Assembly (NCBI GenBank): GCA_041548245.1
Contig: JBFESZ010000043.1
Span: forward strand, 1 to 15,506
Origin: Sulfurimonadaceae bacterium
Lineage (GTDB): Bacteria; Campylobacterota; Campylobacteria; Campylobacterales; Sulfurimonadaceae
Length of the DNA stretch: 15,506 nt
Reading direction: 5' to 3'
Under the pieces are notes generated by a model. The model ran no database searches. It saw only the letters and a list, made by a program, of their open reading frames with translations, and was not told the DNA's origin. Every line of letters begins with the position of its first letter. Position 1 is the stretch's first letter. This document shows positions 2,479-15,506 of the stretch, in pieces. The translations under genes and the position numbers were made by a program.

Positions 2479-2868
2479 ATGGAACATATTCCTGTAGATC
2501 ACCCATATTTTGGGGTATTTTTACTATTTGTGCTTACATTTGGAGCGTTTTATGCAACTACAGTGGCTGCTCGTTGGGTAAGTCATAAGCTAGCTGCCAA
2601 GACATCTGAAAAGATCAAACTGTCAATTTACGAGTGTGGACCGGAAGTAACTAAACAGCCTAGCCGTATCTCGACACAGTTCTATCTTTTTGCACTATTG
2701 TTTCTACTTTTTGATGTAGAGGTCGTTTTTATGTTCCCATGGGCAATCGATTTTAAACTGCTTGGTTGGTTCGGATTTGTTGAGATGATGTTATTTATCT
2801 TATTGCTTACAATTGGTTTTGTATATGCATGGAAAAAAGGAGCACTTGAATGGCACAGCATCAAGTAA
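2479..2868 (+). CDS. nuoA: NADH-quinone oxidoreductase (complex I) subunit A
   Basis: Three hydrophobic segments; YECG, FLLFDVE, FPWA and WKKGALEW motifs; AAGG RBS upstream. Confidence 0.97.
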
Positions 2869-3359
2869 ATTATACACAAGACGGTGGTCTTCCGGTAGCG
2901 TTGACTTCTGTTGATAAAATTATTAACTGGGGGCGTTCAAATTCACTTTGGGCTATGACTTACGGTCTGGCTTGTTGTGGTATTGAGATGATGGCTTCTG
3001 GTGCGTCACGTTATGACTTTGACCGCTTTGGTACAATCTTCCGTGCATCTCCACGTCAATCAGATCTTATGATTGTCGCAGGTACACTGACAAAAAAACA
3101 TGCTGAGTTTATCAAGCGTCTGTATGATCAAATGCCAGAGCCACGCTGGGTAATCTCTATGGGCTCATGTGCAAACACAGGTGGTATGTTTAACACCTAT
3201 GCAACGGTTCAGGGTGTCGATCGTATTATTCCAGTTGATCTATATCTTCCAGGTTGTGCTCCTCGTCCTGAGACACTTCAATATGCAGTTATGATGCTTC
3301 AGAAGAAGATACGTTCAGAAAAAGCAGGTAAATCACAACGTCAAAAGAGGTTAGTGTAA
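2850..3359 (+). CDS. nuoB: Complex I subunit B (carries cluster N2)
   Basis: GLACCGIEM tandem Cys, [18 protein letters not shown] and PGCAPRPE motifs. Overlaps nuoA by 19 bp. Confidence 0.98.
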
Positions 3360-4165
3360 TGAGAAGATACGTACCAAAAGATGATGTACAAAAGAAAGCG
3401 TACTACACAGACCGTTATTGGGTTGCACCTCAAGTGGCAAAGTCACCTGTTGAATCTGATGAAGTCTTTGCAGCTGATCTTGCAGCTATTAAAGCTAAAT
3501 GTGATGTACTTGATGCTTATATCCAAGTTGAGCAAATGGTGGTAGTCATTAATCCTAATGACAACTATACGGTTGCACAGATTTTAAGAGATGAGTGTGC
3601 GTATAATCAGCTTACAGAGTGTTCGGCGATCGACTGGTTGGCAAAACAGGGGCAATTTGAAGTTTTTTATCAGTTTCTTTCGATGAGCAAGCGCAAGCGT
3701 GTTCGTATTAAATGCTTTATTGATAAAGAACAGGCGGTTGAATCGTTGAATCCACTGTTCCGTTCGGCTGACTGGGCAGAACGTGAGATGTATGACATGT
3801 TCGGTGTCAAGGTGAACAATCATCCGTACATGAAACGTATTCTTATGCCGGACGATTGGGTTGGACATCCACTTCTTAAGACTTATCCTTTGCAGGGTGA
3901 CGAAGCTGCTTCATGGTATGAAGTTGATCGTATTTTTGGTAAAGAAGCACGTGATATCATCGGGCCGGAAAATCGGGATTCAGCCATGGTTGACCGTTAT
4001 GATACTGAACGTTTCGGACGTCTTGGCCATGAAGTTTCTCGTGGAGAAGAGTTCAAAGAAGATCAACCGGAAACTCCACTTGGATATCAAGAAGAAGGTG
4101 GTGTATTTGCCCTTTCTAAATTCATAGAAGACGAAGCTGTAACTATTACAGATCGTAAGCGTTAG
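3359..4165 (+). CDS. nuoC: Complex I subunit C (Campylobacterota type with N- and C-terminal extensions)
   Basis: [13 protein letters not shown] and [19 protein letters not shown] signatures. Start overlaps the nuoB stop (TAATG). Confidence 0.96.
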
Positions 4166-4172
4166 GATTGAC

Positions 4173-5411
4173 ATGCAACAGCCAAATAGATTAAGACCAT
4201 TTTTTGAAAATATCAGCTTTGACCGTAAAGATAACGAAATGGTTATCAACTTCGGTCCTCAGCACCCATCGGCGCATGGACAGTTACGTCTGATGCTGCA
4301 TTTACAGCAAGAGCAGATTACTAAGGCTCATCCAGACATCGGTTATCTTCACCGTGGTATGGAGAAGATGGCTGAGAACATGATCTACAATGAGTTCTTG
4401 CCAACTACCGACCGCATGGATTATATTGCATCGAGTTCGAATAACTACGGGTTCGCACTTGCCGTTGAGAAGTTGATCGGGCTAGAAGTTCCTCGTCGTG
4501 CAAAAGTTATCCGTATGATGCTTCTTGAGATCAACCGTTTGATGTCACACCTTTTTTGGTTGGCGACAACAGCACTTGATATCGGTGCGATGACAGTGTT
4601 CTTGTATGCTTTCCGTGAACGTGAATATTTAATGGATATCATCGAAGATTATTGTGGGGCACGTTTGACACACTCATCTGTACGTATTGGTGGTGTGCCA
4701 TTGGATATACCAGACAACTTTATTCCAGATCTGAAAGCTTTCTTGGATAAATTTCCTCAAGATCTTAAAGACTATGAGGACCTTCTTGATACAAACCGTA
4801 TCTGGCGTATGCGTATGGAAGATGTCGGCGTTATATCCACAGAGATGGCAAACTCATGGGGATGTTCAGGTGTTATGCTTAGAGCTTCAGGTGTTCAGTG
4901 GGATATTCGTAAGGAAGAGCCGTATGAACTTTATGACGAAGTCGATTTTGATGTTCCTGTTTCAAATAAAGGTGATAACTACGCGCGTTATAAGCTTTAT
5001 ATGGCAGAGATGCGTGAATCAGCTAAGATCCTTTATCAGACAATGGATATGTATAGAAAGTGTCAAGCGAACAACGAGACAGAGCTTATGGCTCATGCAC
5101 CTCAATATATCTCTGCACCTAAGATCGATATCATGACGCAGAACTACTCGTTAATGCAGCATTTTGTACTTGTTACACAAGGTATGCGTCCACCGGTAGG
5201 TGAAGTGTATGTTCCGACTGAATCACCAAAAGGTGAGCTTGGTTTTTACATCAATTCTCAAGGTGGTCCATACCCATACCGTCTGAAAATGCGTGCTCCG
5301 TCTTTCTGGCATACAGGCATTTTAACTGACTTGCTTCCGGGTTCTATGATCCCTGACGTTGTATCTATTATTGGTACAACTAATATTGTATTTGGTGAGG
5401 TGGACAGATAA
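4173..5411 (+). CDS. nuoD: Complex I subunit D (quinone-binding 49-kDa homolog)
   Basis: [25 protein letters not shown] and ESPKGELG motifs, ending in GEVDR. Confidence 0.98.
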
Positions 5412-5635
5412 TGAAACGTTACGACCTAAGACACTTAAAAGAGAACTTTGATGATCGTATGAGAGAAATCGTCACCAAAGAGATCACGGCGGGCGAAGTT
5501 ATCATTTTCTTATTTGAGATTGGTGACTTCTCTGGAATTCAACGTTCTGCTGACATGATGAAAGAGTGTGGCTGTGAGTTGTTAAACTCACTTAAATTCA
5601 ACGAAGTCGACTGGACGATCGTTGTTAGAAAATAA
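5411..5635 (+). CDS. nuoE: Small Campylobacterota-specific complex I subunit ('NuoE'/NuoX, Cj1575c/HP1264-like), not homologous to the [2Fe-2S] NuoE
   Basis: 74 aa with [19 protein letters not shown] and LLNSLKFNEVDWTIVVRK, recognised as the small subunit that follows nuoD in Campylobacter/Helicobacter. No four-Cys [2Fe-2S] motif. Coupled to nuoD by a TAATG overlap. Confidence 0.85.
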   Translation: MKRYDLRHLKENFDDRMREIVTKEITAGEVIIFLFEIGDFSGIQRSADMMKECGCELLNSLKFNEVDWTIVVRK

Positions 5636-5646
5636 GCGAGTAAATT

Positions 5647-7683
5647 ATGAGTAAAGTTTATTTTTCCACATGGCGCGGGGAGACGATCAACAATATTGGC
5701 AAACCTGAAGATCAGTGGGAAGAGTCAGCTTATAATCTGCCTGAACAATATGACTCGGCGCGAGATGCGAAAGCATTCATCGGCTGGGATGGTGTTGCCC
5801 TTTTCAAGGGTGATATTGACGTTGTTCGTTTAGCTACCGAGTATGCGGCGCAATACCAAGTCTATTCTGAGGCTTGTGGTCGTTGTGCACCGGGTCGCTG
5901 GGGTGGACGTATTTTGTATGACCTAATGGATAAAATCGCTCGTGGTGAAGGTACTGTTGCTGATATGGATCATTTGAAAGAGGTCTCTCGTACAATGCAG
6001 ACGACTTCAAAATGTGAGATCGGAAAGACGGTACCAAACCCACTTTTAGACTTGATGGAGCACTTTGAATCAGATTTTATGGATCTGATTGATAATCAAA
6101 AAGCTTCACCACATTATCATAAAGAAGACATAAGTTATATCGCAAAGATTACAGCACCATGTACAGATGCATGTCCGGCACACGTTGATATACCTGGTTA
6201 TATTGAAGGTGTGCGTGACTTACGTTTTGATGACTCTTTGAAAGCGACACGTCAGACTATGCCTTTAGCACACACATGTGGCCGTGTTTGTCCTCACCCT
6301 TGTGAGGATGAGTGTCGTCGTACAAATCTTGACGAACCGATTTCGATTATGGCTCTTAAACGTTTAGGCGCAGATTATGAGACAGACCATGGTTTCGGTT
6401 TCTTCCATCCAGAAGAGAAAAAACCGGATACTGGCAAAAAAGTCGCTGTCATCGGTGCAGGTCCTGCAGGCTTGACTACGGCATACTATCTTGCATTAGA
6501 GGGAGTACATTGTGATGTTTACGAAGAACTTCCGGTTCTTGGCGGTGAAGTCGCAGTTGGTGTTCCTGAATATCGCATGCCAATTGATAAGTATAATAAA
6601 GATATTGAAGCGGTAAAAGACTTAGGGGTTAACTTTATTGTCAATACAAAAGTGACTGCCGATATGATGCGTCAGTTTGAAAAAGATTATGATGCAATTA
6701 TGATCGCGACAGGTACACGTATCTCCAAGAAGGTTCGTTGTAATAACGAACGTCCTGAAATACAAGGGTACTGGGGTGCAATTGACTTCTTGGATAAAGT
6801 CAACTTATATGAAAAATATGGGTATACCGTCAGCGAAGAAGAGCAAAAGCGTTATATGTTACCGACAGACCATGTCGACCTTACAGGTAAAACTGTTGCC
6901 TGTGTTGGTGGTGGATTTACCTCCATGGACGTTGTGCGCTGTTCAATCCGTGCGGGAGCAAAGCGTGTTGTTATGCTTTATCGTCGTGATGAGAAGACGA
7001 TTATTCGTAATACCACTTATGAAGAGTATCATGAGGCGGTCGAAGAAGGTGTTGAGTTTATCTTCCACTCGGCTGTTGACAGTATGAATGATGAGAATGA
7101 TGTCCTGAAGTCTTTGACTATTGATAAATACGAACTTGTACCAGACCCAGATGGAGGAAGACCAAACCTTGAGAAGATCGAAGGTGCTTCTTTTGATATG
7201 GAAGTGGATTATTTGATCCCGGCCGTATCCCAATCAGCTGACCTTGACCTGGTTCCTGAGGAGTGGGAACTGGAGATGACCTCATGGGCAACGATCAAGA
7301 CCAATGGTAAAGACTATATGACTTCACGTAAAGGTATCTTTGCTTCAGGTGACTGTGAGTATGGTCCAATGACAATTGTCAATGCTGTCGGTCAGGCAAA
7401 ACGTGCTGCATCGGTTATGGCACGTTACGTCCAAACAGGTGAAGTAACATTATCAGATGATGAGATCATGGAAGACCATCTGCGTAAGATGAAAGTCTAT
7501 GACAAGAATGAAAAGATTACGGGCTGGCTTCCGGGGCTTCCGCGTCAGCAATCTGAGATTTTGGATGTTGATGTCAGAAAAGACAATAACAGAGAAGTCA
7601 ATCTTGGATTTACTCAAGAACAAGCTATAGCTGAAGCTGACAGATGTATGCGCTGTTACTATATAGCTATGGCAGCGGTATAA
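5647..7683 (+). CDS. sfrB: FAD-dependent NADPH oxidoreductase Fe-S flavoprotein, SfrB-like (NuoF-type 4Fe-4S domain fused to a glutamate synthase beta subunit/GltD-like core)
   Basis: N-terminal FSTW...AFIGWDG; EACGRCAPGRWG...SKCEIG (NuoF N3-like); APCTDACP and CGRVCPHPCEDEC Fe-S motifs; FAD Rossmann GAGPAG (6454-6471); GVPEYR; second Rossmann GGGFTSMD...YRR; GIFASGD; C-terminal EADRCMRCY. Architecture and length match my recollection of Geobacter SfrB, so the symbol is by homology. Confidence 0.82.
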   Translation: MSKVYFSTWRGETINNIGKPEDQWEESAYNLPEQYDSARDAKAFIGWDGVALFKGDIDVVRLATEYAAQYQVYSEACGRCAPGRWGGRILYDLMDKIARGEGTVADMDHLKEVSRTMQTTSKCEIGKTVPNPLLDLMEHFESDFMDLIDNQKASPHYHKEDISYIAKITAPCTDACPAHVDIPGYIEGVRDLRFDDSLKATRQTMPLAHTCGRVCPHPCEDECRRTNLDEPISIMALKRLGADYETDHGFGFFHPEEKKPDTGKKVAVIGAGPAGLTTAYYLALEGVHCDVYEELPVLGGEVAVGVPEYRMPIDKYNKDIEAVKDLGVNFIVNTKVTADMMRQFEKDYDAIMIATGTRISKKVRCNNERPEIQGYWGAIDFLDKVNLYEKYGYTVSEEEQKRYMLPTDHVDLTGKTVACVGGGFTSMDVVRCSIRAGAKRVVMLYRRDEKTIIRNTTYEEYHEAVEEGVEFIFHSAVDSMNDENDVLKSLTIDKYELVPDPDGGRPNLEKIEGASFDMEVDYLIPAVSQSADLDLVPEEWELEMTSWATIKTNGKDYMTSRKGIFASGDCEYGPMTIVNAVGQAKRAASVMARYVQTGEVTLSDDEIMEDHLRKMKVYDKNEKITGWLPGLPRQQSEILDVDVRKDNNREVNLGFTQEQAIAEADRCMRCYYIAMAAV

Positions 7684-7693
7684 GGGAGGTTTG

Positions 7694-9943
7694 ATGGTAA
7701 ATTTTACAATTAACGGTCAAGCTGTCTCTTGTGAACAGGGTGAGACAATATTAACGGTTGCTCGTCGCAACAATATCTATATACCGACAATGTGTTATCT
7801 GCAAAAGACGACACCGTGTGCATCATGTCGTCTATGTTCAGTTGAAGCTGAAGGCGTGGATGGGTTTGTTCTTTCATGCCAAGCGCCTGCAACAGAAGGC
7901 TTGGCTGTTATTACCGACTCTGAGTCTTTGCACACGGAACGCACTAATATTATGCGTATGTATGATGTGAATCATCCACTTGAGTGCGGTGTATGCGATA
8001 AATCAGGTGCTTGTGACCTTCAAAACAAGACCTTAGAGTTTGATGTCTCTTCACAGCTGTTCACAGCAAAAGATCAGCCACGTCAGATTGATCATTGGGG
8101 GAAGATCAATTATGATCCAAACCTTTGTATCTTATGTGAGAAATGTACACATGTGTGTAATGAAGTTATTGGTGATGATGCGATTGATCTACTTTTTGGA
8201 GGATATGGCTCAAAAGTTATTCCAAAGAATTCTGATACGTTGGATTGTACATATTGTGGTGAGTGTATTTCAGTGTGTCCGGTTGGAGCACTTATATCAG
8301 ACGACTTCCAATACACGTCCAATGCCTGGGAACTTAACAAAATTCCGGCAGCTTGTGCTCACTGTTCAGCAGCTTGTGCCTTAGAGTATGAAGTGAAGCA
8401 TGAAAGCATTGAGACGATGGACAAAGAGAAGATCTATCGTGTTACCAATGATTTTGAAGTTAACACATTATGTGGTGCAGGCCGTTTTGCATATGATTTT
8501 GAGAACTCAGTGTTTGAGAAGGACGAGATCGCCTTTAGCAAAGCAGTAAGTGCGATTAAATCAGGTGCTGTACGTTTTACTTCTTTGATTACGAATGAAG
8601 AGGCTCTGATCCTGCAAAGAGTGAAAGAAAAACTTGGGATCAAACTATTTAATGAAGAAGCACGTAAGTTCAAAAAGTTCTTGAATGCGTTTTCTACAAC
8701 TTCAGGAAATGCATTGTACACGGCAACACTTGATGATATTAGAAAATCAAATGCGGTGATCGTTATCGGGACAAGAATAGTGACAGACAACCCGGCAGTG
8801 CGTTATGCGATAACAACAGCACATAGGCACAATGGAGCGAAAGTTTCATATATGCACCCACTTGAAGATGCATACATGAAGAACACAGCTACACAGTTCG
8901 TTAAGTACGAGGTCGGTACAGAAGAGGGTGTTATGGCTCTCTTGGCCAAGACACTAATAGATGGCAGTAGTTTATCTGCAGAGAACAAATCGTTCTTCGA
9001 TGCTTTGGATGAGGGCTACTTAGAAGCTGAATCGAACGTTGGAAGCGAAGAGATGAGTATGCTTAGTAAGAATCTCACGCGAGCTAAAAAGCGTACATTG
9101 GTGTTAGGAGCTGATTTAATTGCACATGACAGAGCTGAAAACATTGCACGCCTTGCCGGTTTAATAGAAAAGCATACAGAGTTCAAGGTTATGATAGTGT
9201 CTCCTTCTACGAACACATTGGGTGTTAGCCTTATCTGTGAACTGGATGAAGATAAGAGCGGTGCAAGTGCAGTAGGCTATAACACCAAAGGTGATTTCGT
9301 TCTGTCATCATATGGAAATGGTCAGTTAGATATGCCGTCACTAAATCAGCAAGAGGGCACATTCACTTCGATCGATAAGCGTGTGATTCCGACAAATGTT
9401 GCACTTGGATATAACGGATATGTGTTAAATGATCTAGCCAATGCATTGGGTGTAAATGCAAAATACACTATAGATTATACACAGTATCTTCCTCAAGAGT
9501 CAGGGTATAAAGCCGTTGCATTTGATGACTTGGAAGTCCGTTATGCAAATGAGATTAAAGACAGTCGTGGTTATGAATTGGATAACAAAAGCGTTGTTGC
9601 AAATGGAACACTAGAACAAGTTTCAGAGCTTCCTGAGTTTAACGGTACGGTACTATACAACTGTAACCCGGTGTTACAGTTTACTCCGAATACACACAAG
9701 GCGCATCAATTAGATGATGAAGCTTCACTTGTAGGTTCAGAGCAGTTCGCTATTGCTGCAAAGCTTCAAGATGGAGACAGTGTAGAGTTTAATTTCGCTG
9801 GAACTACGCAAAGCCGTATTTTTAGAATCGATACAGAACTAAAAGGGACAATCGCCTTAAACCCAAGCTTTGATTTGGGGCTTAACGCTATCTCTAGTGA
9901 ATATCGTTATCAAGCAGTAAAAATTTCAAAGGTAGGAAGTTAA
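7694..9943 (+). CDS. nuoG: Complex I subunit G paralog 1 (short, SfrA-like N-terminus)
   Basis: [2Fe-2S] motif IPTMC...CRLC...SC; HPLECGVCDKSGAC (N5); CILCEKCTHVC...CTYCGECISVCP; CAHCSAAC...LCGAGR (N7); degenerate molybdopterin-enzyme-like C-terminal fold. ATG at 7694 is preferred over TTG at 7691 because GGAGG lies at 7685-7689. Confidence 0.88.
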   Translation: MVNFTINGQAVSCEQGETILTVARRNNIYIPTMCYLQKTTPCASCRLCSVEAEGVDGFVLSCQAPATEGLAVITDSESLHTERTNIMRMYDVNHPLECGVCDKSGACDLQNKTLEFDVSSQLFTAKDQPRQIDHWGKINYDPNLCILCEKCTHVCNEVIGDDAIDLLFGGYGSKVIPKNSDTLDCTYCGECISVCPVGALISDDFQYTSNAWELNKIPAACAHCSAACALEYEVKHESIETMDKEKIYRVTNDFEVNTLCGAGRFAYDFENSVFEKDEIAFSKAVSAIKSGAVRFTSLITNEEALILQRVKEKLGIKLFNEEARKFKKFLNAFSTTSGNALYTATLDDIRKSNAVIVIGTRIVTDNPAVRYAITTAHRHNGAKVSYMHPLEDAYMKNTATQFVKYEVGTEEGVMALLAKTLIDGSSLSAENKSFFDALDEGYLEAESNVGSEEMSMLSKNLTRAKKRTLVLGADLIAHDRAENIARLAGLIEKHTEFKVMIVSPSTNTLGVSLICELDEDKSGASAVGYNTKGDFVLSSYGNGQLDMPSLNQQEGTFTSIDKRVIPTNVALGYNGYVLNDLANALGVNAKYTIDYTQYLPQESGYKAVAFDDLEVRYANEIKDSRGYELDNKSVVANGTLEQVSELPEFNGTVLYNCNPVLQFTPNTHKAHQLDDEASLVGSEQFAIAAKLQDGDSVEFNFAGTTQSRIFRIDTELKGTIALNPSFDLGLNAISSEYRYQAVKISKVGS

Positions 9944-9945
9944 TA

Positions 9946-12435
9946 ATGAGTAATGTAACAATTACGATTGACGGACAGGAGATTGAAACACAGGAGGGCG
10001 AGTTTGTACTCAATGCCGCTCGTGCCAATGATATCTTTATTCCGGCAATCTGTTATCTGACGCGTTGTAGTCCTACATTGGCATGTCGTATCTGTTTAGT
10101 TGAAGCAGACGGTAAGCAGGTGTATGCATGTAATGCAAAAGCAAAAGACGGAATGCAGATAACTACATCTACGGAAAACATCGAGTTGGAACGTAGAGCA
10201 ATTATGGAAGTGTATGATGTTAATCATCCGCTTCAATGTGGTGTGTGTGACCAATCAGGCGAGTGTGAACTTCAGAACTATACATTGGAAATGGCTGTTG
10301 ACTCTCAGAGCTATTCTATACCTGATGTAGCACGTCCTGTATTGGATTGGGGACACATTCACTACGATGCGGGACTTTGTATTGTATGTGAGCGTTGTGT
10401 AACAGTCTGTAAAGATATGATTGGTGACAACTCACTGACAACGATTCCTCGCGGTTCAGAGGCAATTGCCAATGAACATAAAGAATCTATGCCTAAAGAC
10501 GCTTATGCGATGTGGAATAAATTGAACAAGTCAATTATCGGTCTGACAGCCGGTGGCGACATGCTTGATTGTACATCATGTGGTGAGTGTGCTGCTGTCT
10601 GTCCAGTCGGTGCACTGGTGAATACAGACTACATGTACACATCAAACTCATGGGAGTTGAATAGAGTCCCTTCGACGTGTACACACTGTTCTGCAGGTTG
10701 TCAAATCAGTTATGATGTGAAACATGAATCAATCGCAAATCCAGAAGACAAGATTTACCGCGTGACCAATGAATGGAACTATGTTTCGCTTTGTGGCGCT
10801 GGACGTTATGGTTATGATTATGAGAACAGGGGTGTAGCAAAAGATGAGATAGCATTTGCTAATGCTGTTGAAGCTTTCAAGAAAGCAGACACCATCAAGT
10901 TTACATCGACGATTACAAATGAAGAGGCTTATATTCTTCAAACTCTTAAAGAGAAGCATGGCTATAAACTTATCAATCCGGAAGCCAAAGCTTTCCAAAA
11001 CTTCTTGAATGACTATTCAGAGATTTCTGGAACAGCTTTATATGGATCAGACCTAAAAGTAGCGCATGATTCGAACTTTATCGTTTCTGTCGGTACAGCG
11101 TTAAAGACAGATAATCCGAATGCACGTTATGCATTTAATAACTCGATGACGATGAACAAGGGTGCAGGTCTTTATTTCCATCCGGTAGTTGATCCTGTCA
11201 TTGATCAGATGGGCAAATCGGTGATGAGTATCAATCATGCACCACTTCAGGAAGAGGCTGTACTTTATCTTTTGCTTGATCTTTTCGCGGACAAAGAGAA
11301 ACTTCCAACATCTATCGTTGAGTATCTTGCCGGTTTCCACTCTATGAAGACAATAACGGTTGAAGAGACGATCAAAGAAAAAGTCGTTGAGATCGTTAAA
11401 GAGATGAAGATCAACGAAGAGACAGGTGAAGAAGAGGAAGTTGAAGTCGAGAAGTCTAAGATGGTTCCTAAGAAGGTCTCCAAAGAAGTTGAAGTGGATG
11501 AAAACCGCCTACTTGAGATCTTGAACGCGCCGAAAGACTTTACTGAGAAAATGGAAAAGTTCTTAGCTAAAAAAGATGCATTCTCGCTAATCGTTGGACC
11601 GGACCTCTATACGCATCCGGCTTCTAGAAATCTTGCGCGCCTGTGTGCATTGATCGAGAAATACACAGCTTTTGAGTTGGTGATGATTCCTACCTTGACA
11701 AACTCACTTGGGGTAACTCAGATCTGTGATCTGGATGATGAAGCAGGTTCATACTCTGTTGGTTATAACACGGAAGCTGACTTTGTCCTTTCTGCTCTTG
11801 GCAATGGTGACTTGGATATGCCGGCAATGAATCAGCAAGAGGGGACAATGACATCGATCAACAAGCGTGTCAATCCTGCAAATGCTGCTCTTGGTTATGG
11901 AGGTTATGTGCTTAATGACCTGGCAAATGCACTTGGTCTTAATGCTGCACTTACAGTTGATTACACGGAACAACTTCCGACAGCGAAAGGTTTTAAAGCT
12001 GAGAAGTTTGATAACCTGCCTAACCATTATGAGAATGACGGTACGGAAAAACGCGGATATGTTCTTGAAAACGTTGCAGCCAAGATAAGCGGTGATGAAA
12101 GTGTACTTCCATTTGATGAGGGTGTCAAAATCTCTGAGAAGGCACTTTATCTTGCTAATCCTGTGCGTCAGTTCTCTGACTTTACGGCGAAAGCACATCA
12201 ATCTAAAGAGAAACCAGGTTTACATGCGTCCAAGTCTTATTTGGATGCAAATGAGTTGAACGAAGGCGATAAGGTTAAGGTTAAGACAGCTAAAGGCGAA
12301 GTGGAAGTTGAAGTTTCGCATGACCACTTTATCGATGGTGAGATCGCATATCTGACTACATTTGATTCTAAACTAAAATCAGAGGCATTGTTTGACGGGT
12401 ACCGTTTTACAACAGCTTCAATTGAAAGGGTATAA
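9946..12435 (+). CDS. nuoG: Complex I subunit G paralog 2 (long, typical Campylobacterota type)
   Basis: Same set of Fe-S motifs (IPAIC...CRIC...AC; HPLQCGVCDQSGEC; CIVCERCVTVC...CTSCGECAAVCP; CTHCSAGC...LCGAGR) plus two insertions relative to paralog 1. Directly upstream of nuoH. Confidence 0.93.
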   Translation: MSNVTITIDGQEIETQEGEFVLNAARANDIFIPAICYLTRCSPTLACRICLVEADGKQVYACNAKAKDGMQITTSTENIELERRAIMEVYDVNHPLQCGVCDQSGECELQNYTLEMAVDSQSYSIPDVARPVLDWGHIHYDAGLCIVCERCVTVCKDMIGDNSLTTIPRGSEAIANEHKESMPKDAYAMWNKLNKSIIGLTAGGDMLDCTSCGECAAVCPVGALVNTDYMYTSNSWELNRVPSTCTHCSAGCQISYDVKHESIANPEDKIYRVTNEWNYVSLCGAGRYGYDYENRGVAKDEIAFANAVEAFKKADTIKFTSTITNEEAYILQTLKEKHGYKLINPEAKAFQNFLNDYSEISGTALYGSDLKVAHDSNFIVSVGTALKTDNPNARYAFNNSMTMNKGAGLYFHPVVDPVIDQMGKSVMSINHAPLQEEAVLYLLLDLFADKEKLPTSIVEYLAGFHSMKTITVEETIKEKVVEIVKEMKINEETGEEEEVEVEKSKMVPKKVSKEVEVDENRLLEILNAPKDFTEKMEKFLAKKDAFSLIVGPDLYTHPASRNLARLCALIEKYTAFELVMIPTLTNSLGVTQICDLDDEAGSYSVGYNTEADFVLSALGNGDLDMPAMNQQEGTMTSINKRVNPANAALGYGGYVLNDLANALGLNAALTVDYTEQLPTAKGFKAEKFDNLPNHYENDGTEKRGYVLENVAAKISGDESVLPFDEGVKISEKALYLANPVRQFSDFTAKAHQSKEKPGLHASKSYLDANELNEGDKVKVKTAKGEVEVEVSHDHFIDGEIAYLTTFDSKLKSEALFDGYRFTTASIERV

Positions 12436-12437
12436 AT

Positions 12438-13421
12438 ATGGATACAGCATATATAATTGAGACGATCATCAAGATCGTTGTCATTTTAACTGTGTTTTCT
12501 GCGCTTGCAGGTCTTGGGACCTATTTTGAGCGTAAGGTACTTGCGTTTATGCAAAGACGTCTTGGGCCAATGGTCGTTGGACCTTACGGTCTTGCGCAGG
12601 TAGCTGCGGACGGTATCAAACTGTTCACAAAAGAGGATATCATCCCAACTAATGTTGTCGCACGTATCTTCAAGATAGCTCCTATTATTACGGCAGCAAC
12701 TGCTTTTATGGCGGCAGCAGCGATTCCATTTATGCCTTCTTTCACTATTGGTGATTATACGGTAAACCCTATTGTCGCTGATGTCAATGTCGGTGTTTTA
12801 TATGTATTGGCGGTTATGGCTGTAGGTCTTTATGGACCGCTACTTGGTGGTATGGCATCTGCAAATAAATATTCACTTTTATCAGCAGCTCGTGGTGCGG
12901 CTGTGTTTATCTCTTATGAGGTGATCACAGGTCTTTCACTTCTTGCTCCATTGATGATGGTAGGTTCATTCTCACTGATTGACCTTAACAACTTTCAAAC
13001 TGAAGGTATGTGGATGGTGGTCTATCAGCCGGTTGCCATGGTTCTTTTCCTGATTGCAGGTTTCGCTGAGACAGGTCGTACACCTTTTCACCTGGTAGCT
13101 AATGATCATGAGATTATTGACGGTTTTGGTACTGAGTACTCTGGTATGCGTTGGGGTCTGTTCTTCATCGGTGAGTATGCCAATATGTTCTTCTATGCTT
13201 TCTTGATCTCTATCATCTTCTTTGGTGGTTTTGGAGACGGTAGTGTTGCGGGTGCTTTCGCTCTTCTTGGTAAAGTAGCGTTCTTTTTCTTCTTCTTCTT
13301 GTGGACACGCGCGGCGTGGCCAGATGTAAGACCAGATCAATTGATGTGGTTATGTTGGAAAGTATTAATGCCATTAGCGGTGATCAACGTTGTTATCACT
13401 GGCTTTGTGCTGATGTTTTAA
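12438..13421 (+). CDS. nuoH: Complex I subunit H
   Basis: ERKVLAFMQRRLGP, ADGIKLFTKED, SANKYS, ISYE, EYSGMRWG and RPDQLM motifs; about 8 hydrophobic segments. Confidence 0.97.
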   Translation: MDTAYIIETIIKIVVILTVFSALAGLGTYFERKVLAFMQRRLGPMVVGPYGLAQVAADGIKLFTKEDIIPTNVVARIFKIAPIITAATAFMAAAAIPFMPSFTIGDYTVNPIVADVNVGVLYVLAVMAVGLYGPLLGGMASANKYSLLSAARGAAVFISYEVITGLSLLAPLMMVGSFSLIDLNNFQTEGMWMVVYQPVAMVLFLIAGFAETGRTPFHLVANDHEIIDGFGTEYSGMRWGLFFIGEYANMFFYAFLISIIFFGGFGDGSVAGAFALLGKVAFFFFFFLWTRAAWPDVRPDQLMWLCWKVLMPLAVINVVITGFVLMF

Positions 13422-13430
13422 GGGTTGATG

Positions 13431-14063
13431 ATGAGTAAATTACCAAGTCTAGAGAATTTTAAAGATAGAAATGTAACTGAGGGATCAGCTTACTATAATA
13501 TTGATGGTGAAGATTATCCGACAACAGGTTGGGGAAAATTCAAACGTGTGGTAAACCGAACATTCAGATTAGAACTGTTTGTTGGGCTGTGGGTTGTGTT
13601 GCGTGAGATGTTCAAGTTTGACATCCATACGGTTCAATATCCTGCAGAGAAGTTGCCTATTGGTCCGCGTTACCGTGCTGTGCATGAGATGCAACGTCTT
13701 TGGGAGTCTGGTACAGAGCGTTGTATCGGATGTGGTCTTTGTGAAAAGATCTGTATCTCTGATTGTATTCGTATGGATACGAGAATCGATGAGAACTCTC
13801 GTAAAGAAGTAACGGAGTACACGATCAATCTTGGTCGTTGTATCTTCTGTGGGTATTGTGCAGAAGTCTGTCCTGAGCTTGCAATTGTTCACGGCGGTCG
13901 TTATGAGAATGTCTCTGAACAGAGAGCACACTATATCGGTTTTGAAGACATGTTGACACCACTTGATATGGCTATTCAAGGAAAAGTTCCTGAATACCCA
14001 GGTTTTGGTGCCATCACACCACATGAAGACGAGCGCGTTAAGAAAACGCCTCTAGCTTACTAA
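13431..14063 (+). CDS. nuoI: Complex I subunit I (2x[4Fe-4S], N6a/N6b)
   Basis: TVQYPAEK, RCIGCGLCEKIC and GRCIFCGYCAEVCPELAI motifs. The start is uncertain among 13425 (TTG), 13428 and 13431 (ATG); AAGGG spacing favours 13431. Confidence 0.96.
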   Translation: MSKLPSLENFKDRNVTEGSAYYNIDGEDYPTTGWGKFKRVVNRTFRLELFVGLWVVLREMFKFDIHTVQYPAEKLPIGPRYRAVHEMQRLWESGTERCIGCGLCEKICISDCIRMDTRIDENSRKEVTEYTINLGRCIFCGYCAEVCPELAIVHGGRYENVSEQRAHYIGFEDMLTPLDMAIQGKVPEYPGFGAITPHEDERVKKTPLAY

Positions 14064-14073
14064 GGAGATAGGA

Positions 14074-14637
14074 ATGTTTGAAGCAGCAGCTTTTTATTTG
14101 TTTGCATTTTTAACGATTGCAATGTTCTGGATCACAGTCACAACTAAGCACTCGTTATATGCATTGACAGCTTTGGCAGCGGGTATGATATTTATCTCTG
14201 CCTTTTTCTTTATCCTAGAAGCGGATTTCATGGGTGTCGTTCAGATCATCGTCTATTCAGGTGCGGTAATGGCACTTTATGCCTTTGGGATGATGTTCTT
14301 CGACACGACACGTGAACTTCATGAGAAAGCAAGCAGTGCCAAGGTAGTTTTCATACTGGGCGGCCTGTCTGCAATTTTAGTTGTATGTATGGTGACTGCA
14401 CCGATCATCGGTGGAAATATTGAAGCACACTATCCGATCGTTGAGGGTATTGGTAATTCTCAGGCAGTGGGTATGGTCCTTTTCACAAAGTATCTAGTGC
14501 CGTTCGAAGTTGCAGCTGTCATGTTGTTGGTAGCGATGATCGCCGGTATTATCATGGCTGGAAAAAAGATGGATGATTCATACTCTGAACTGAGTGAAGA
14601 TGAAATCGATAGAAAAAATGCGGAGGTTATTTCATAA
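14074..14637 (+). CDS. nuoJ: Complex I subunit J
   Basis: Five hydrophobic segments; LEADFMGVVQIIVYSGAVMAL and YLVPFEVAAVMLLVAMIAGI motifs; AAGGAG RBS. Confidence 0.96.
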   Translation: MFEAAAFYLFAFLTIAMFWITVTTKHSLYALTALAAGMIFISAFFFILEADFMGVVQIIVYSGAVMALYAFGMMFFDTTRELHEKASSAKVVFILGGLSAILVVCMVTAPIIGGNIEAHYPIVEGIGNSQAVGMVLFTKYLVPFEVAAVMLLVAMIAGIIMAGKKMDDSYSELSEDEIDRKNAEVIS

Positions 14638-14942
14638 TGGAAATCACTTTAACACATTATCTTGTGCTTTCAGCAGTCTTATTCTCAATCGGTCTGATCG
14701 GTGTTATGCGCCGTAAGAACCTTTTGATGCTGTTTTTTGCAACAGAGATTTTATTAAACTCAGTCAATGTCGCTCTAGTAGCGATTTCACACTATTATGG
14801 TGACTTCACAGGTCAGATGTTTGCATTCTTTATTATTGCGATCGCTGCATCAGAAGTAGCTGTTGGTCTTGGTCTTCTTGTATTGTGGTTTAAGCGTTAT
14901 AACACAATCGATCTTGATAACATGACATCGATGAAAGGTTAA
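14637..14942 (+). CDS. nuoK: Complex I subunit K
   Basis: 101 aa with three TM segments, RRKN, and conserved Glu in TEILLN and AASEVAVGL. TAATG overlap with nuoJ. Confidence 0.97.
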   Translation: MEITLTHYLVLSAVLFSIGLIGVMRRKNLLMLFFATEILLNSVNVALVAISHYYGDFTGQMFAFFIIAIAASEVAVGLGLLVLWFKRYNTIDLDNMTSMKG

Positions 14943-14947
14943 TGTAA

Positions 14948-15506
14948 ATGGAAATGTATTTATATATCGCACTTTTTGCTCCGCTGGTAGGTTCACTTAC
15001 AGCAGGACTTTTTGGTGCGTCTAAAAAGACCCTGTTCACAGGTCTCTTCGCGTCAGGGATGTTGTTTGCTTCTTTTATAAGCTCACTGCTACTTCTGATT
15101 CAAGTTCTTCAAGGCAATACTTACCATGTAGAGATGATGACATGGATCGCTACAGGTGATCTTTATGTTCCATTCGGTTTTGTCGTCAATGAAGTAACTG
15201 TTACGATGATGATGGTTGTTACAACAGTATCAACGGTTGTTCATGTGTATTCAATCGGTTACATGGATCATGACAAAGCGTTTAACCGTTTCTTTGCTTA
15301 TCTAAGTGCTTTCGTGTTCTCTATGATGGTACTTGTCATGAGTGACAACCTTCTTGGTCTTTTCATCGGTTGGGAAGGCGTTGGTGTGTGTTCATGGTTG
15401 CTTATCGGTTTTTGGTATCATAAAGAGAGTGCTACATGGGCAGCAAACGAAGCGTTCATTATGAACCGTATTGCTGACCTTGCAATACTTATCGGGATCT
15501 TTATTA
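14948..15506 (+). CDS. nuoL: Complex I subunit L (antiporter-like), 5' part only, truncated by the window end
   Basis: Absent from the ORF track because there is no stop in the window. My translation from ATG 14948 gives MEMYLYIALFAPLVGS...VHVYSIGYMDHDKAFNRFFAYL...SDNLLGLFIGWEGVGVCSWLLIGFWY...AFIMNRIADL, which carries the NuoL/ND5 signatures. Confidence 0.96.
   Translation, partial: MEMYLYIALFAPLVGSLTAGLFGASKKTLFTGLFASGMLFASFISSLLLLIQVLQGNTYHVEMMTWIATGDLYVPFGFVVNEVTVTMMMVVTTVSTVVHVYSIGYMDHDKAFNRFFAYLSAFVFSMMVLVMSDNLLGLFIGWEGVGVCSWLLIGFWYHKESATWAANEAFIMNRIADLAILIGIFI

Follow-up and report, generated by a model that had tools for sequence, protein, structure and literature searches.

A Sulfurimonadaceae complex I operon with an SfrB-like flavoprotein and two NuoG copies, and a possible origin of NuoY

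Introduction

A contig from a Sulfurimonadaceae bacterium (GenBank assembly GCA_041548245.1, contig JBFESZ010000043.1; 15,506 nucleotides), hereafter the window, was analysed as a whole; it carries a nuo operon for complex I and its 3' end falls inside nuoL. Between nuoD and nuoH, four genes encode the small protein NuoX, an SfrB-like flavoprotein and two NuoG paralogs that we call NuoG1 and NuoG2. Comparison with related loci gives, on sequence grounds, three modules: NuoX with NuoG2, the flavoprotein with the iron-sulfur (Fe-S) half of NuoG1, and the back half of NuoG1. This back half is homologous to NuoY, whose gene lies between nuoX and nuoG2 in loci without the flavoprotein, which suggests that what is called 'NuoY' in Campylobacter and Helicobacter is all that remains of a duplicated NuoG, namely its back half, with a job outside complex I. 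We find it evenly balanced whether the NuoG pair arose by capture and duplication of an SfrA, and not from a canonical NuoG, and whether NuoY is what erosion left of the first copy: its back half, free of cofactors, with an invariant acidic ridge that would work outside complex I. As for the enzyme, we lean tentatively, and with slightly less than even confidence, towards one complex that would hold both NuoG copies and, with no bifurcation at the flavin, pass electrons to and fro between NADP(H) and menaquinone.

Both the layout and the idea of two reductants have been published (bioRxiv 10.1101/717884): that text describes a complex I operon of this layout in Sulfurimonas denitrificans, crediting Weerakoon & Olson 2008, and in it McNichol and Sievert propose a bifurcating reverse electron transport to NAD(P)+ and ferredoxin. 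In its section 7, the N3 domain, SfrAB and a link to NuoY go unmentioned. For Campylobacter jejuni, replacement by nuoXY and use of flavodoxin have been reported (PMC6682613, PMC4178425, PMC3144371; passages available). As the original prediction, made from the letters of this DNA alone, had supposed, the literature searched (subscription papers and bioRxiv supplements lay outside our view) holds no biochemical or structural study of such a locus. The origin of NuoY and its retention independently of complex I were not found in that literature either and are the main addition made here.

Gene content of the nuoD-nuoH interval

ORF calling found the four-gene block where it had been predicted, behind nuoD (4173-5411), with all genes on the forward strand. 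The first gene overlaps nuoD by 1 bp, the spacers among the four genes are 11, 7 and 2 bp, and nuoH lies 2 bp downstream. GC content is even (0.40-0.44 across 5001-12500), no dedicated search for repeats or insertion sequences having been made, and promoter and terminator scans returned counts at chance level.

The first gene (5411-5635) occupies the HP1264/Cj1575c slot and encodes 74 amino acids. It had been called 'NuoE', a name that has to be withdrawn: the protein matches PF16514, NuoX, at E 2e-39 and Helicobacter pylori HP1264 (PDB 2LXR) at E 2e-23, has no conserved Cys across 60 sequences, and lacks the [2Fe-2S] thioredoxin-like domain that defines the NuoE of canonical complex I. HP1264 has been described as TusA-like and FMN-binding (PMC6269979, available in part). 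We found nuoX in 337 of the 401 genomes of our phylum sample. A domain search of the window revealed no NuoE, full NuoF or NfnA in the operon, nor any HydBC/StnAB-type gene; the FMN/NADH-binding domain of NuoF (PF01512) is absent from the window, as had been noted, and its sole match in the genome lies on another contig, C3.

The second gene (5647-7683) encodes the flavoprotein of 678 aa, an FAD/NADP(H) Fe-S protein with PF10589, Fer4_20 and Pyr_redox_2 domains. Its N-terminal part retains the C-terminal N3 Fe-S domain of NuoF (residues 73-145, 5863-6081; PF10589, E 1e-20), joined to a GltD unit of the StnC/NfnB type. NuoG1 (7691-9943, 750 aa by ORF call; the likelier start is the ATG at 7694, preceded by GGAGG) and NuoG2 (9946-12435, 829 aa, the copy kept with the core) both pass the campylobacterial NuoG model PRK08493 and are 41% identical to each other, in agreement with the two paralogs foreseen. 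NuoG1 is short by two segments relative to NuoG2. Its Fe-S half (residues 1 to ~250, 7691-8440) carries N1b, the His-ligated N5, N4, an extra ferredoxin-type cluster and the start of N7; the back half (8441-9943) is cofactor-free.

The window thus presents the features of a Sulfurimonas-type operon: a small NuoX in the NuoE slot, a GltD-like flavoprotein and two tandem NuoG. In S. denitrificans, Suden_1824, Suden_1823 and Suden_1822 are alike, with an NfnB/GltD-like protein in the NuoF slot followed by two NuoG, a short one that misses the same two segments as NuoG1 of the window and then a long one.

NuoY corresponds to the back half of NuoG1

Loci that lack the flavoprotein have, between nuoX and nuoG2, a gene whose product matches residues ~345-505 and ~630-750 of NuoG1, equivalent to 8723-9205 and 9578-9940 of the window. 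By position this NuoY slot is that of Cj1574c/HP1265, and matches named H. pylori and C. fetus were found. A profile built from 16 NuoY-slot proteins gave a median of 210 bits with NuoG1 (41 sequences, 40-249) and of 53 bits with NuoG2 (54 sequences, maximum 86). In a tree, the NuoY and NuoG1 rows grouped apart from NuoG2 (93/93, support 0.87). The NuoY model (pLDDT 96.8) consists of a Rossmann-like domain and a double-psi barrel, the molybdoenzyme/NuoG scaffold, which it matches with Z 17.3 and rmsd 3.0 over 222 aligned residues. Accordingly, a separate NuoY gene of 220-350 aa between nuoX and nuoG is not found in the window, where it exists as the back half of NuoG1.

A derivation of NuoY from NuoG1 was not found in the literature searched, and the available parts of PMC13147460, PMC4453560, PMC7894505 and PMC2825233 are silent on the origin of NuoY. 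The homology of NuoY and NuoG is partly anticipated in database labels, since 'chain G-like protein' is the name given to some NuoY clusters in the ESM Atlas. One NuoY-like protein, P0297, is labelled in one source as from the eukaryote Anaeramoba and is probably bacterial contamination of a transcriptome.

NuoY is retained without complex I

NuoY or the NuoG1 back half occurs in 380/401 genomes (367, and 13 from a second search), nine weak matches to NuoG2 being excluded from the count. Sixty-four genomes lack nuoX, one of them by a contig break; by genus tallies the other 63 have no NuoG match either, and 54 of these 63, counted from the tallies, keep nuoY. We inspected 17 orphan nuoY loci, and none had nuoX, nuoG2 or nuoH adjoining; two had hydrogenase-like nuoB/nuoD matches, one of which was confirmed as a hydrogenase. 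Orphan NuoY of the campylobacter, arcobacter and helicobacter types nest in the tree among the operonic NuoY of their own families. In one deep-branching family, orphan nuoY follows four like-sized genes at 3/3 loci (L144:545-5657, L145:649-5702, L146:632-5642); these are hemE-hemB-hemC-hemN at L144, those at L145 and L146 being judged by ORF size alone.

NuoY or the back half was not found in 21 genomes, 20 of which are Helicobacteraceae-type (H. pylori-like genomes, a family set by a NuoX near-identical to 2LXR; other family names are inferred). Complex I without nuoY was seen in 5/5 loci checked, from nine such genomes: these Helicobacteraceae-type operons, L182-L186, read nuoD-nuoX-nuoG, nuoX being directly followed by nuoG2.

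These patterns point to a second, complex-I-independent role for the NuoG1 back half, which would explain its survival as NuoY. Conserved acidic residues are present in the back half (E407, D440, E447, E454), and the acidic ridge of NuoY could belong, for example, to an adaptor in Fe-S, radical-SAM or haem metabolism. According to Weerakoon and Olson, Cj1574c is reportedly essential and the nuo genes dispensable. A supplementary list of PMC10077673 (available in part), which we took as an essential-gene table, includes Cj1574c, Cj1575c and nuoD in its C. jejuni 11168 column and leaves out Cj1573c.

We also considered NuoY as a partner of the AAA ATPase encoded upstream of nuoA and rejected it, this ATPase being present in 20/20 nuoY-less genomes and not found in 6/30 with nuoY. 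Prediction of a NuoY-NuoG2 complex (full length, locus L167, 90-row alignments) scored 0.01 and was uninformative either way.

The flavoprotein and NuoG1 resemble a stand-alone sfrB-sfrA pair

The flavoprotein had been proposed to be an SfrB-like NADPH protein, and its N3 + GltD architecture, NADP(H) hallmarks and stand-alone sfrB-sfrA relatives all agree with this. The same architecture is widespread outside the phylum. For the best full-length outside relative, P0126, a NuoG-like gene follows in 34/34 metagenome loci whose sequence runs on for 1 kb or more, and a nuo gene occurs in 0/63 loci; read from gene order, this pattern is sfrB-sfrA. The window shares with SfrAB-type systems the N3 + GltD protein, its gene directly before a NuoG-like gene, and Gly for the third N3 Cys, but its arm lies inside nuo with NuoG duplicated, whereas the outside loci are stand-alone (63/63) and their flavoproteins have an extra Cys (CCxxC) missing in the campylobacterial ones. 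The likeness to Geobacter sulfurreducens SfrAB follows published descriptions of that enzyme, no record named Geobacter SfrB having been retrieved. SfrB-type proteins carry the database label 'formate dehydrogenase (NADP+) beta subunit'.

In their N-terminal halves, both NuoG copies are closer to SfrA-like proteins than to a canonical NuoG. The median identity of the N-terminal half to SfrA-like partners is 40% for NuoG1 and 36% for NuoG2, and to the canonical NuoG of contig C3 (one canonical sequence) 26% and 30%, respectively; NuoG1 has 11 diagnostic residues in common with stand-alone SfrA-like proteins and NuoG2 has 4.

The pair might therefore be a soluble SfrAB-like enzyme, an NADPH:ferredoxin oxidoreductase that shares a transcript with nuo but communicates with complex I through a diffusing carrier alone. 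The order of the outside genes, the greater closeness of NuoG1 to the stand-alone partners, the basic residues K104 and K113 next to N5 of NuoG1 and a role of its back half outside complex I would all suit such an enzyme. However, at every campylobacterial locus examined the pair is embedded in the nuo operon, with nuoX on one side and nuoG2 on the other, and an FqrB-like protein is already encoded in the genome; we judge a soluble enzyme unlikely.

The arm is lost as a unit

We found the flavoprotein N-terminus in 92/401 genomes and two NuoG N-termini in 92/401, 90 genomes being common to both. Three of the four mismatched genomes (G188, G382, G264) are explained by contig ends, and in G268 the second match is an unrelated gene. 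The expected co-occurrence of the sfrB-like gene and nuoG1 thus holds across the phylum, the two being lost together, and so do the expected pairings, the flavoprotein travelling with the NuoG1 Fe-S half and NuoX with NuoG2. This arm is present in 34/34 genomes of the family of the window and in 15/118 Helicobacteraceae-type genomes. Among the 80 named loci nearest to the window, 61 have more than 5 kb downstream, of which 56 are of the long form, with the arm, and 5 otherwise. On a NuoD+NuoG2 tree of 96 loci, midpoint-rooted, with several weak nodes and with named long-form loci thinned, Dollo counting gave 12 losses of the arm, and the long form therefore seems ancestral.

At eight loci of close relatives, the flavoprotein and NuoG1 residues 1 to ~250 were lost together. 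These loci keep an ORF of 483-511 aa with 40-48% identity to NuoG1 of the window, intact close relatives showing 77-82%. Named Sulfurovum proteins of ~448 aa resemble a cut NuoG1, as seen from the proteins alone, without gene context. McNichol and Sievert give the layout as universal in Sulfurimonas and Sulfurovum, whereas we find records so named with a truncated NuoG1. At locus L127, NuoY itself stands in place of the long NuoG1, and a natural NuoX-NuoY fusion of ~351 aa exists at L173:1812-2867 and in three database proteins (P0302, P0304, P0309).

Other loci are irregular. At L063:6184-6450, in one close relative, all that remains of NuoG1 between nuoX and nuoG2 is a piece of 88 aa in which N- and C-terminal ends are fused, by deletion or assembly artefact. 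L155 and L156 have nuoG2-nuoH apart from the upstream nuo genes, and their genomes gave no nuoY or flavoprotein match with the queries used. Large insertions in one Helicobacteraceae-type genus (L045, L047, L051) bring the flavoprotein, NuoG1 and NuoG2 up to 962, 1046 and 1012 aa.

The original prediction had seen in these modules two interchangeable heads, the flavoprotein with NuoG1 for NADP(H) and NuoG2 with NuoX for ferredoxin/flavodoxin; they would alternate at the same N5/NuoI site of the core. The two modules are indeed lost separately, the N5 ligands are invariant in both NuoG copies, G100, S105 and M88 are common to both copies and differ in stand-alone SfrA-like proteins, and NuoG2 works without NuoY in some genomes. 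But NuoG1 without NuoG2 occurs in no genome with an intact locus, and NuoG2 is never the lost copy. V101, Q122 and F124 at the N5 face are also found in stand-alone SfrA-like proteins and are therefore not core-docking marks, and the NuoX-NuoY fusion joins parts of both supposed heads, NuoX being fused to the NuoG1 remnant. Interchangeable heads were thus not borne out, and we keep alternation as a possible but doubtful arrangement. The shared N5 face had also been considered as a proof of swapping and was set aside as mostly SfrA inheritance.

Cofactor motifs of the flavoprotein and of the two NuoG

We then compared 44 campylobacterial flavoproteins. In 44/44, the N3-like domain has just three Cys (C77, C80, C123), with Gly83 at the position of the third Cys of NuoF, and C172, C176, C215, C219, C223, C667, C670, K238, R310 and the NADP(H) 2'-phosphate motif Y445-R446-R447 are invariant. 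The AF2 model folds as a single unit (pLDDT 93.5, pTM 0.91) whose top fold matches are NfnABC and StnC, with 33% identity to NfnB; the GltD domain of StnC/NfnA(BC) (PDB 8OH5, 9BOV, 9N5U; PMC10482914, available in part) is the best match in both sequence and fold. A second Rossmann motif, GGGFTSMD (6907-6930, residues 421-428), is also found in 44/44, distant relatives having Asn after the glycines; this variant may affect nucleotide binding.

K238 aligns to K170 of StnC and to a Glu of Thermotoga maritima NfnB, so that the Glu ligand of the FAD-proximal [4Fe-4S] cluster, a hallmark of NfnB, is replaced by Lys in 44/44. The FAD of StnC is reported to be non-bifurcating, Lys for Glu being one of its two differences from NfnB, and StnC has the same FAD-near Arg as R310 without its hydrogen bond to FAD N5 (PMC10482914, passages available). 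Further likenesses to StnC/Bfu are a C-terminal RCxxC and a NuoG-like partner whose FdhF-like part is inactive; in Stn/Bfu, however, GltD is inserted in the NuoG chain and the HydBC-like StnAB bifurcates, and the operon of the window has no StnAB gene.

By ligand motifs, each NuoG here has five clusters. In NuoG1 the N1b, N5 and N4 ligands are kept in 41/41 sequences, the extra cluster is lost in 4/41 and N7 altered in 2/41; since the main-path ligands are universal while the side-branch clusters decay, the working path of NuoG1 would be N1b-N4-N5. In NuoG2, N1b, N5, N4 and the extra cluster are kept in 54/54 and N7 is lost in 12/54; in a larger set, N7 is lost in 3/39 long-form and 25/38 short-form loci.

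These motifs bear on the bifurcating complex I of McNichol and Sievert, in which the oxidation of two menaquinols would be coupled to the reduction of one NAD(P)+ together with two ferredoxins, with the split at N4 of NuoG via the extra cluster and N7. The homology to NfnB, the invariant R310, the five clusters per NuoG and the published rationale (bioRxiv 10.1101/717884, in part) speak for it. On the other side, the proximal-cluster position is the Lys of a non-bifurcating flavoprotein, the operon has no HydBC/StnAB-type or NfnA-type gene, and the arm is kept despite loss of the extra cluster of NuoG1 and, in long-form loci, of N7 of NuoG2; we find bifurcation very unlikely.

A probable NuoG2 port and the electron carriers

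NuoG2 has specific, near-invariant basic residues, K57, K65 and K67 (within 10066-10146) and K179, K184 and K195 (in an insertion, 10468-10557). Across 39 long-form and 38 short-form loci this patch hardly varies, and five nuoY-less loci largely keep it. From what is known of NuoG structure, it would lie on the face normally covered by NuoF and could be a port for an acidic carrier; NuoX and NuoG2 with this patch are thus probably a ferredoxin/flavodoxin port. Binding of the patch to the acidic ridge of NuoY was considered as well and is weakened, either being kept without the other.

The original prediction had left flavodoxin and ferredoxin side by side as carriers. No match to Flavodoxin_1 was found in this 96%-complete genome, which encodes small ferredoxin-like ORFs; because of this absence ferredoxin is the likelier carrier here, and flavodoxin loses ground. 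The complex I of C. jejuni and H. pylori also has NuoX, NuoG2 with the basic patch and, in the NuoY slot, a gene homologous to parts of NuoG1, but has neither the flavoprotein nor the NuoG1 Fe-S half, and flavodoxin is its reported donor (PMC4178425, available in part).

Three TrxB-like reductases without CxxC are encoded on contigs C116, C120 and C121 (L261, L257, L258). That of C116, which we take to be FqrB-like, is 44-46% identical to FqrB-type proteins of two relatives, and its presence means that a separate soluble link between NADPH and the carrier probably exists. Replacement of FqrB by the flavoprotein arm was considered and found unsupported, both being in this one genome.

The rest of the window and of the genome

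Upstream, nuoA, nuoB, nuoC and nuoD (2479-5411) belong to an epsilon-type complex I operon and are homologous to the canonical operon on contig C3; downstream, nuoH, nuoI, nuoJ, nuoK and the start of nuoL occupy 12438-15505, all on the forward strand, and the contig ends there, ahead of any nuoM or nuoN. The AAA ATPase just upstream of nuoA (532-2268) has a winged-helix domain, and its gene precedes the nuo operon in many relatives too; a second copy with 86% identity (G000:C163:360-2093) may come from a contaminating strain.

A second nuo operon, complete and canonical (nuoA-B-CD-E-F-G-H-I-J-K-L-M-N), is found on contig C3 (G000:C3:1-13039); the NuoG that it encodes is short, at 503 aa. The GC content there is 0.419 (genome 0.408), and the ownership of the operon is uncertain given an assembly contamination of 5.67%. 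Judged by its genes, this canonical complex I would give the cell an ordinary NADH entry. Two complex I types are described for Sulfurospirillum multivorans too. The prediction of a chemolithoautotroph using the reverse TCA cycle is supported as far as the genome encodes ATP citrate lyase, but the arm also extends beyond autotrophs, as its presence in Helicobacteraceae-type genomes indicates.

Discussion

We favour a single complex with two NuoG copies because NuoG2 is never the copy that goes missing from an intact locus, the arm was never seen outside the operon in the phylum and NuoX-NuoY fusions exist, and because both nuoG genes of S. denitrificans are reportedly expressed at similar levels (bioRxiv 10.1101/717884, in part). 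In the contacts that we infer, NuoG2 would dock on the NuoBCDI core via its His-ligated N5 and, together with NuoX, would present a basic face on which an acidic carrier, ferredoxin or flavodoxin, could dock. An sfrB-sfrA pair that once stood alone would be the ancestor of the NADP(H) arm, made up of the flavoprotein and NuoG1. Electrons would pass in either direction between NADP(H), FAD, two [4Fe-4S] clusters, the N3-like cluster, N1b, N4 and N5 of NuoG1, NuoG2 with the core, and menaquinone, the FAD serving as a plain two-to-one electron converter and not as a bifurcating flavin. In a host with the reverse TCA cycle, the arm would most likely serve to produce NADPH, through reverse electron transport driven by protons; heterotrophic relatives would use it to oxidise NADPH.

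Several observations weigh against this single complex. The outside relatives stand alone, without nuo genes, so that the arm can function apart from complex I, and the N5 neighbourhood is equally conserved in NuoG1 and NuoG2, which fits swapping as well. The count in its favour, with the flavoprotein in 0/63 genomes without nuoX/nuoG2, is weak because complex I was lost mostly in lineages already armless, and all our counts run over related genomes, in which kin are not independent. With the back half of NuoG1 kept without complex I and complex I present without the back half, no argument from anchoring is left, and the idea that the back half is kept as an anchor to NuoG2 was dropped given the orphan nuoY and the nuoY-less operons. 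Finally, the canonical complex I of contig C3 could serve reverse transport to NAD+ instead.

How sulfur-oxidising Campylobacterota generate the NADPH and the reduced ferredoxin that their reverse TCA cycle consumes is given as an open question (10.1101/717884). As a bioenergetic machine, a proton-coupled complex I that works with NADP(H) would be out of the ordinary. Close relatives in which part of the locus was naturally deleted place the edge of the module near residue 250 of NuoG1, one checked residue disfavours the bifurcation model, and NuoG2 gains a defined candidate ferredoxin port. For the NuoY of Campylobacter and Helicobacter, the comparison supplies an origin and a fold, as well as evidence that it acts outside complex I. 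If the NuoG pair is indeed a captured SfrA and NuoY its remnant, the NADPH-armed complex I would be the ancestral form in the order, and the job of NuoY outside complex I would account for the reported essentiality of Cj1574c.

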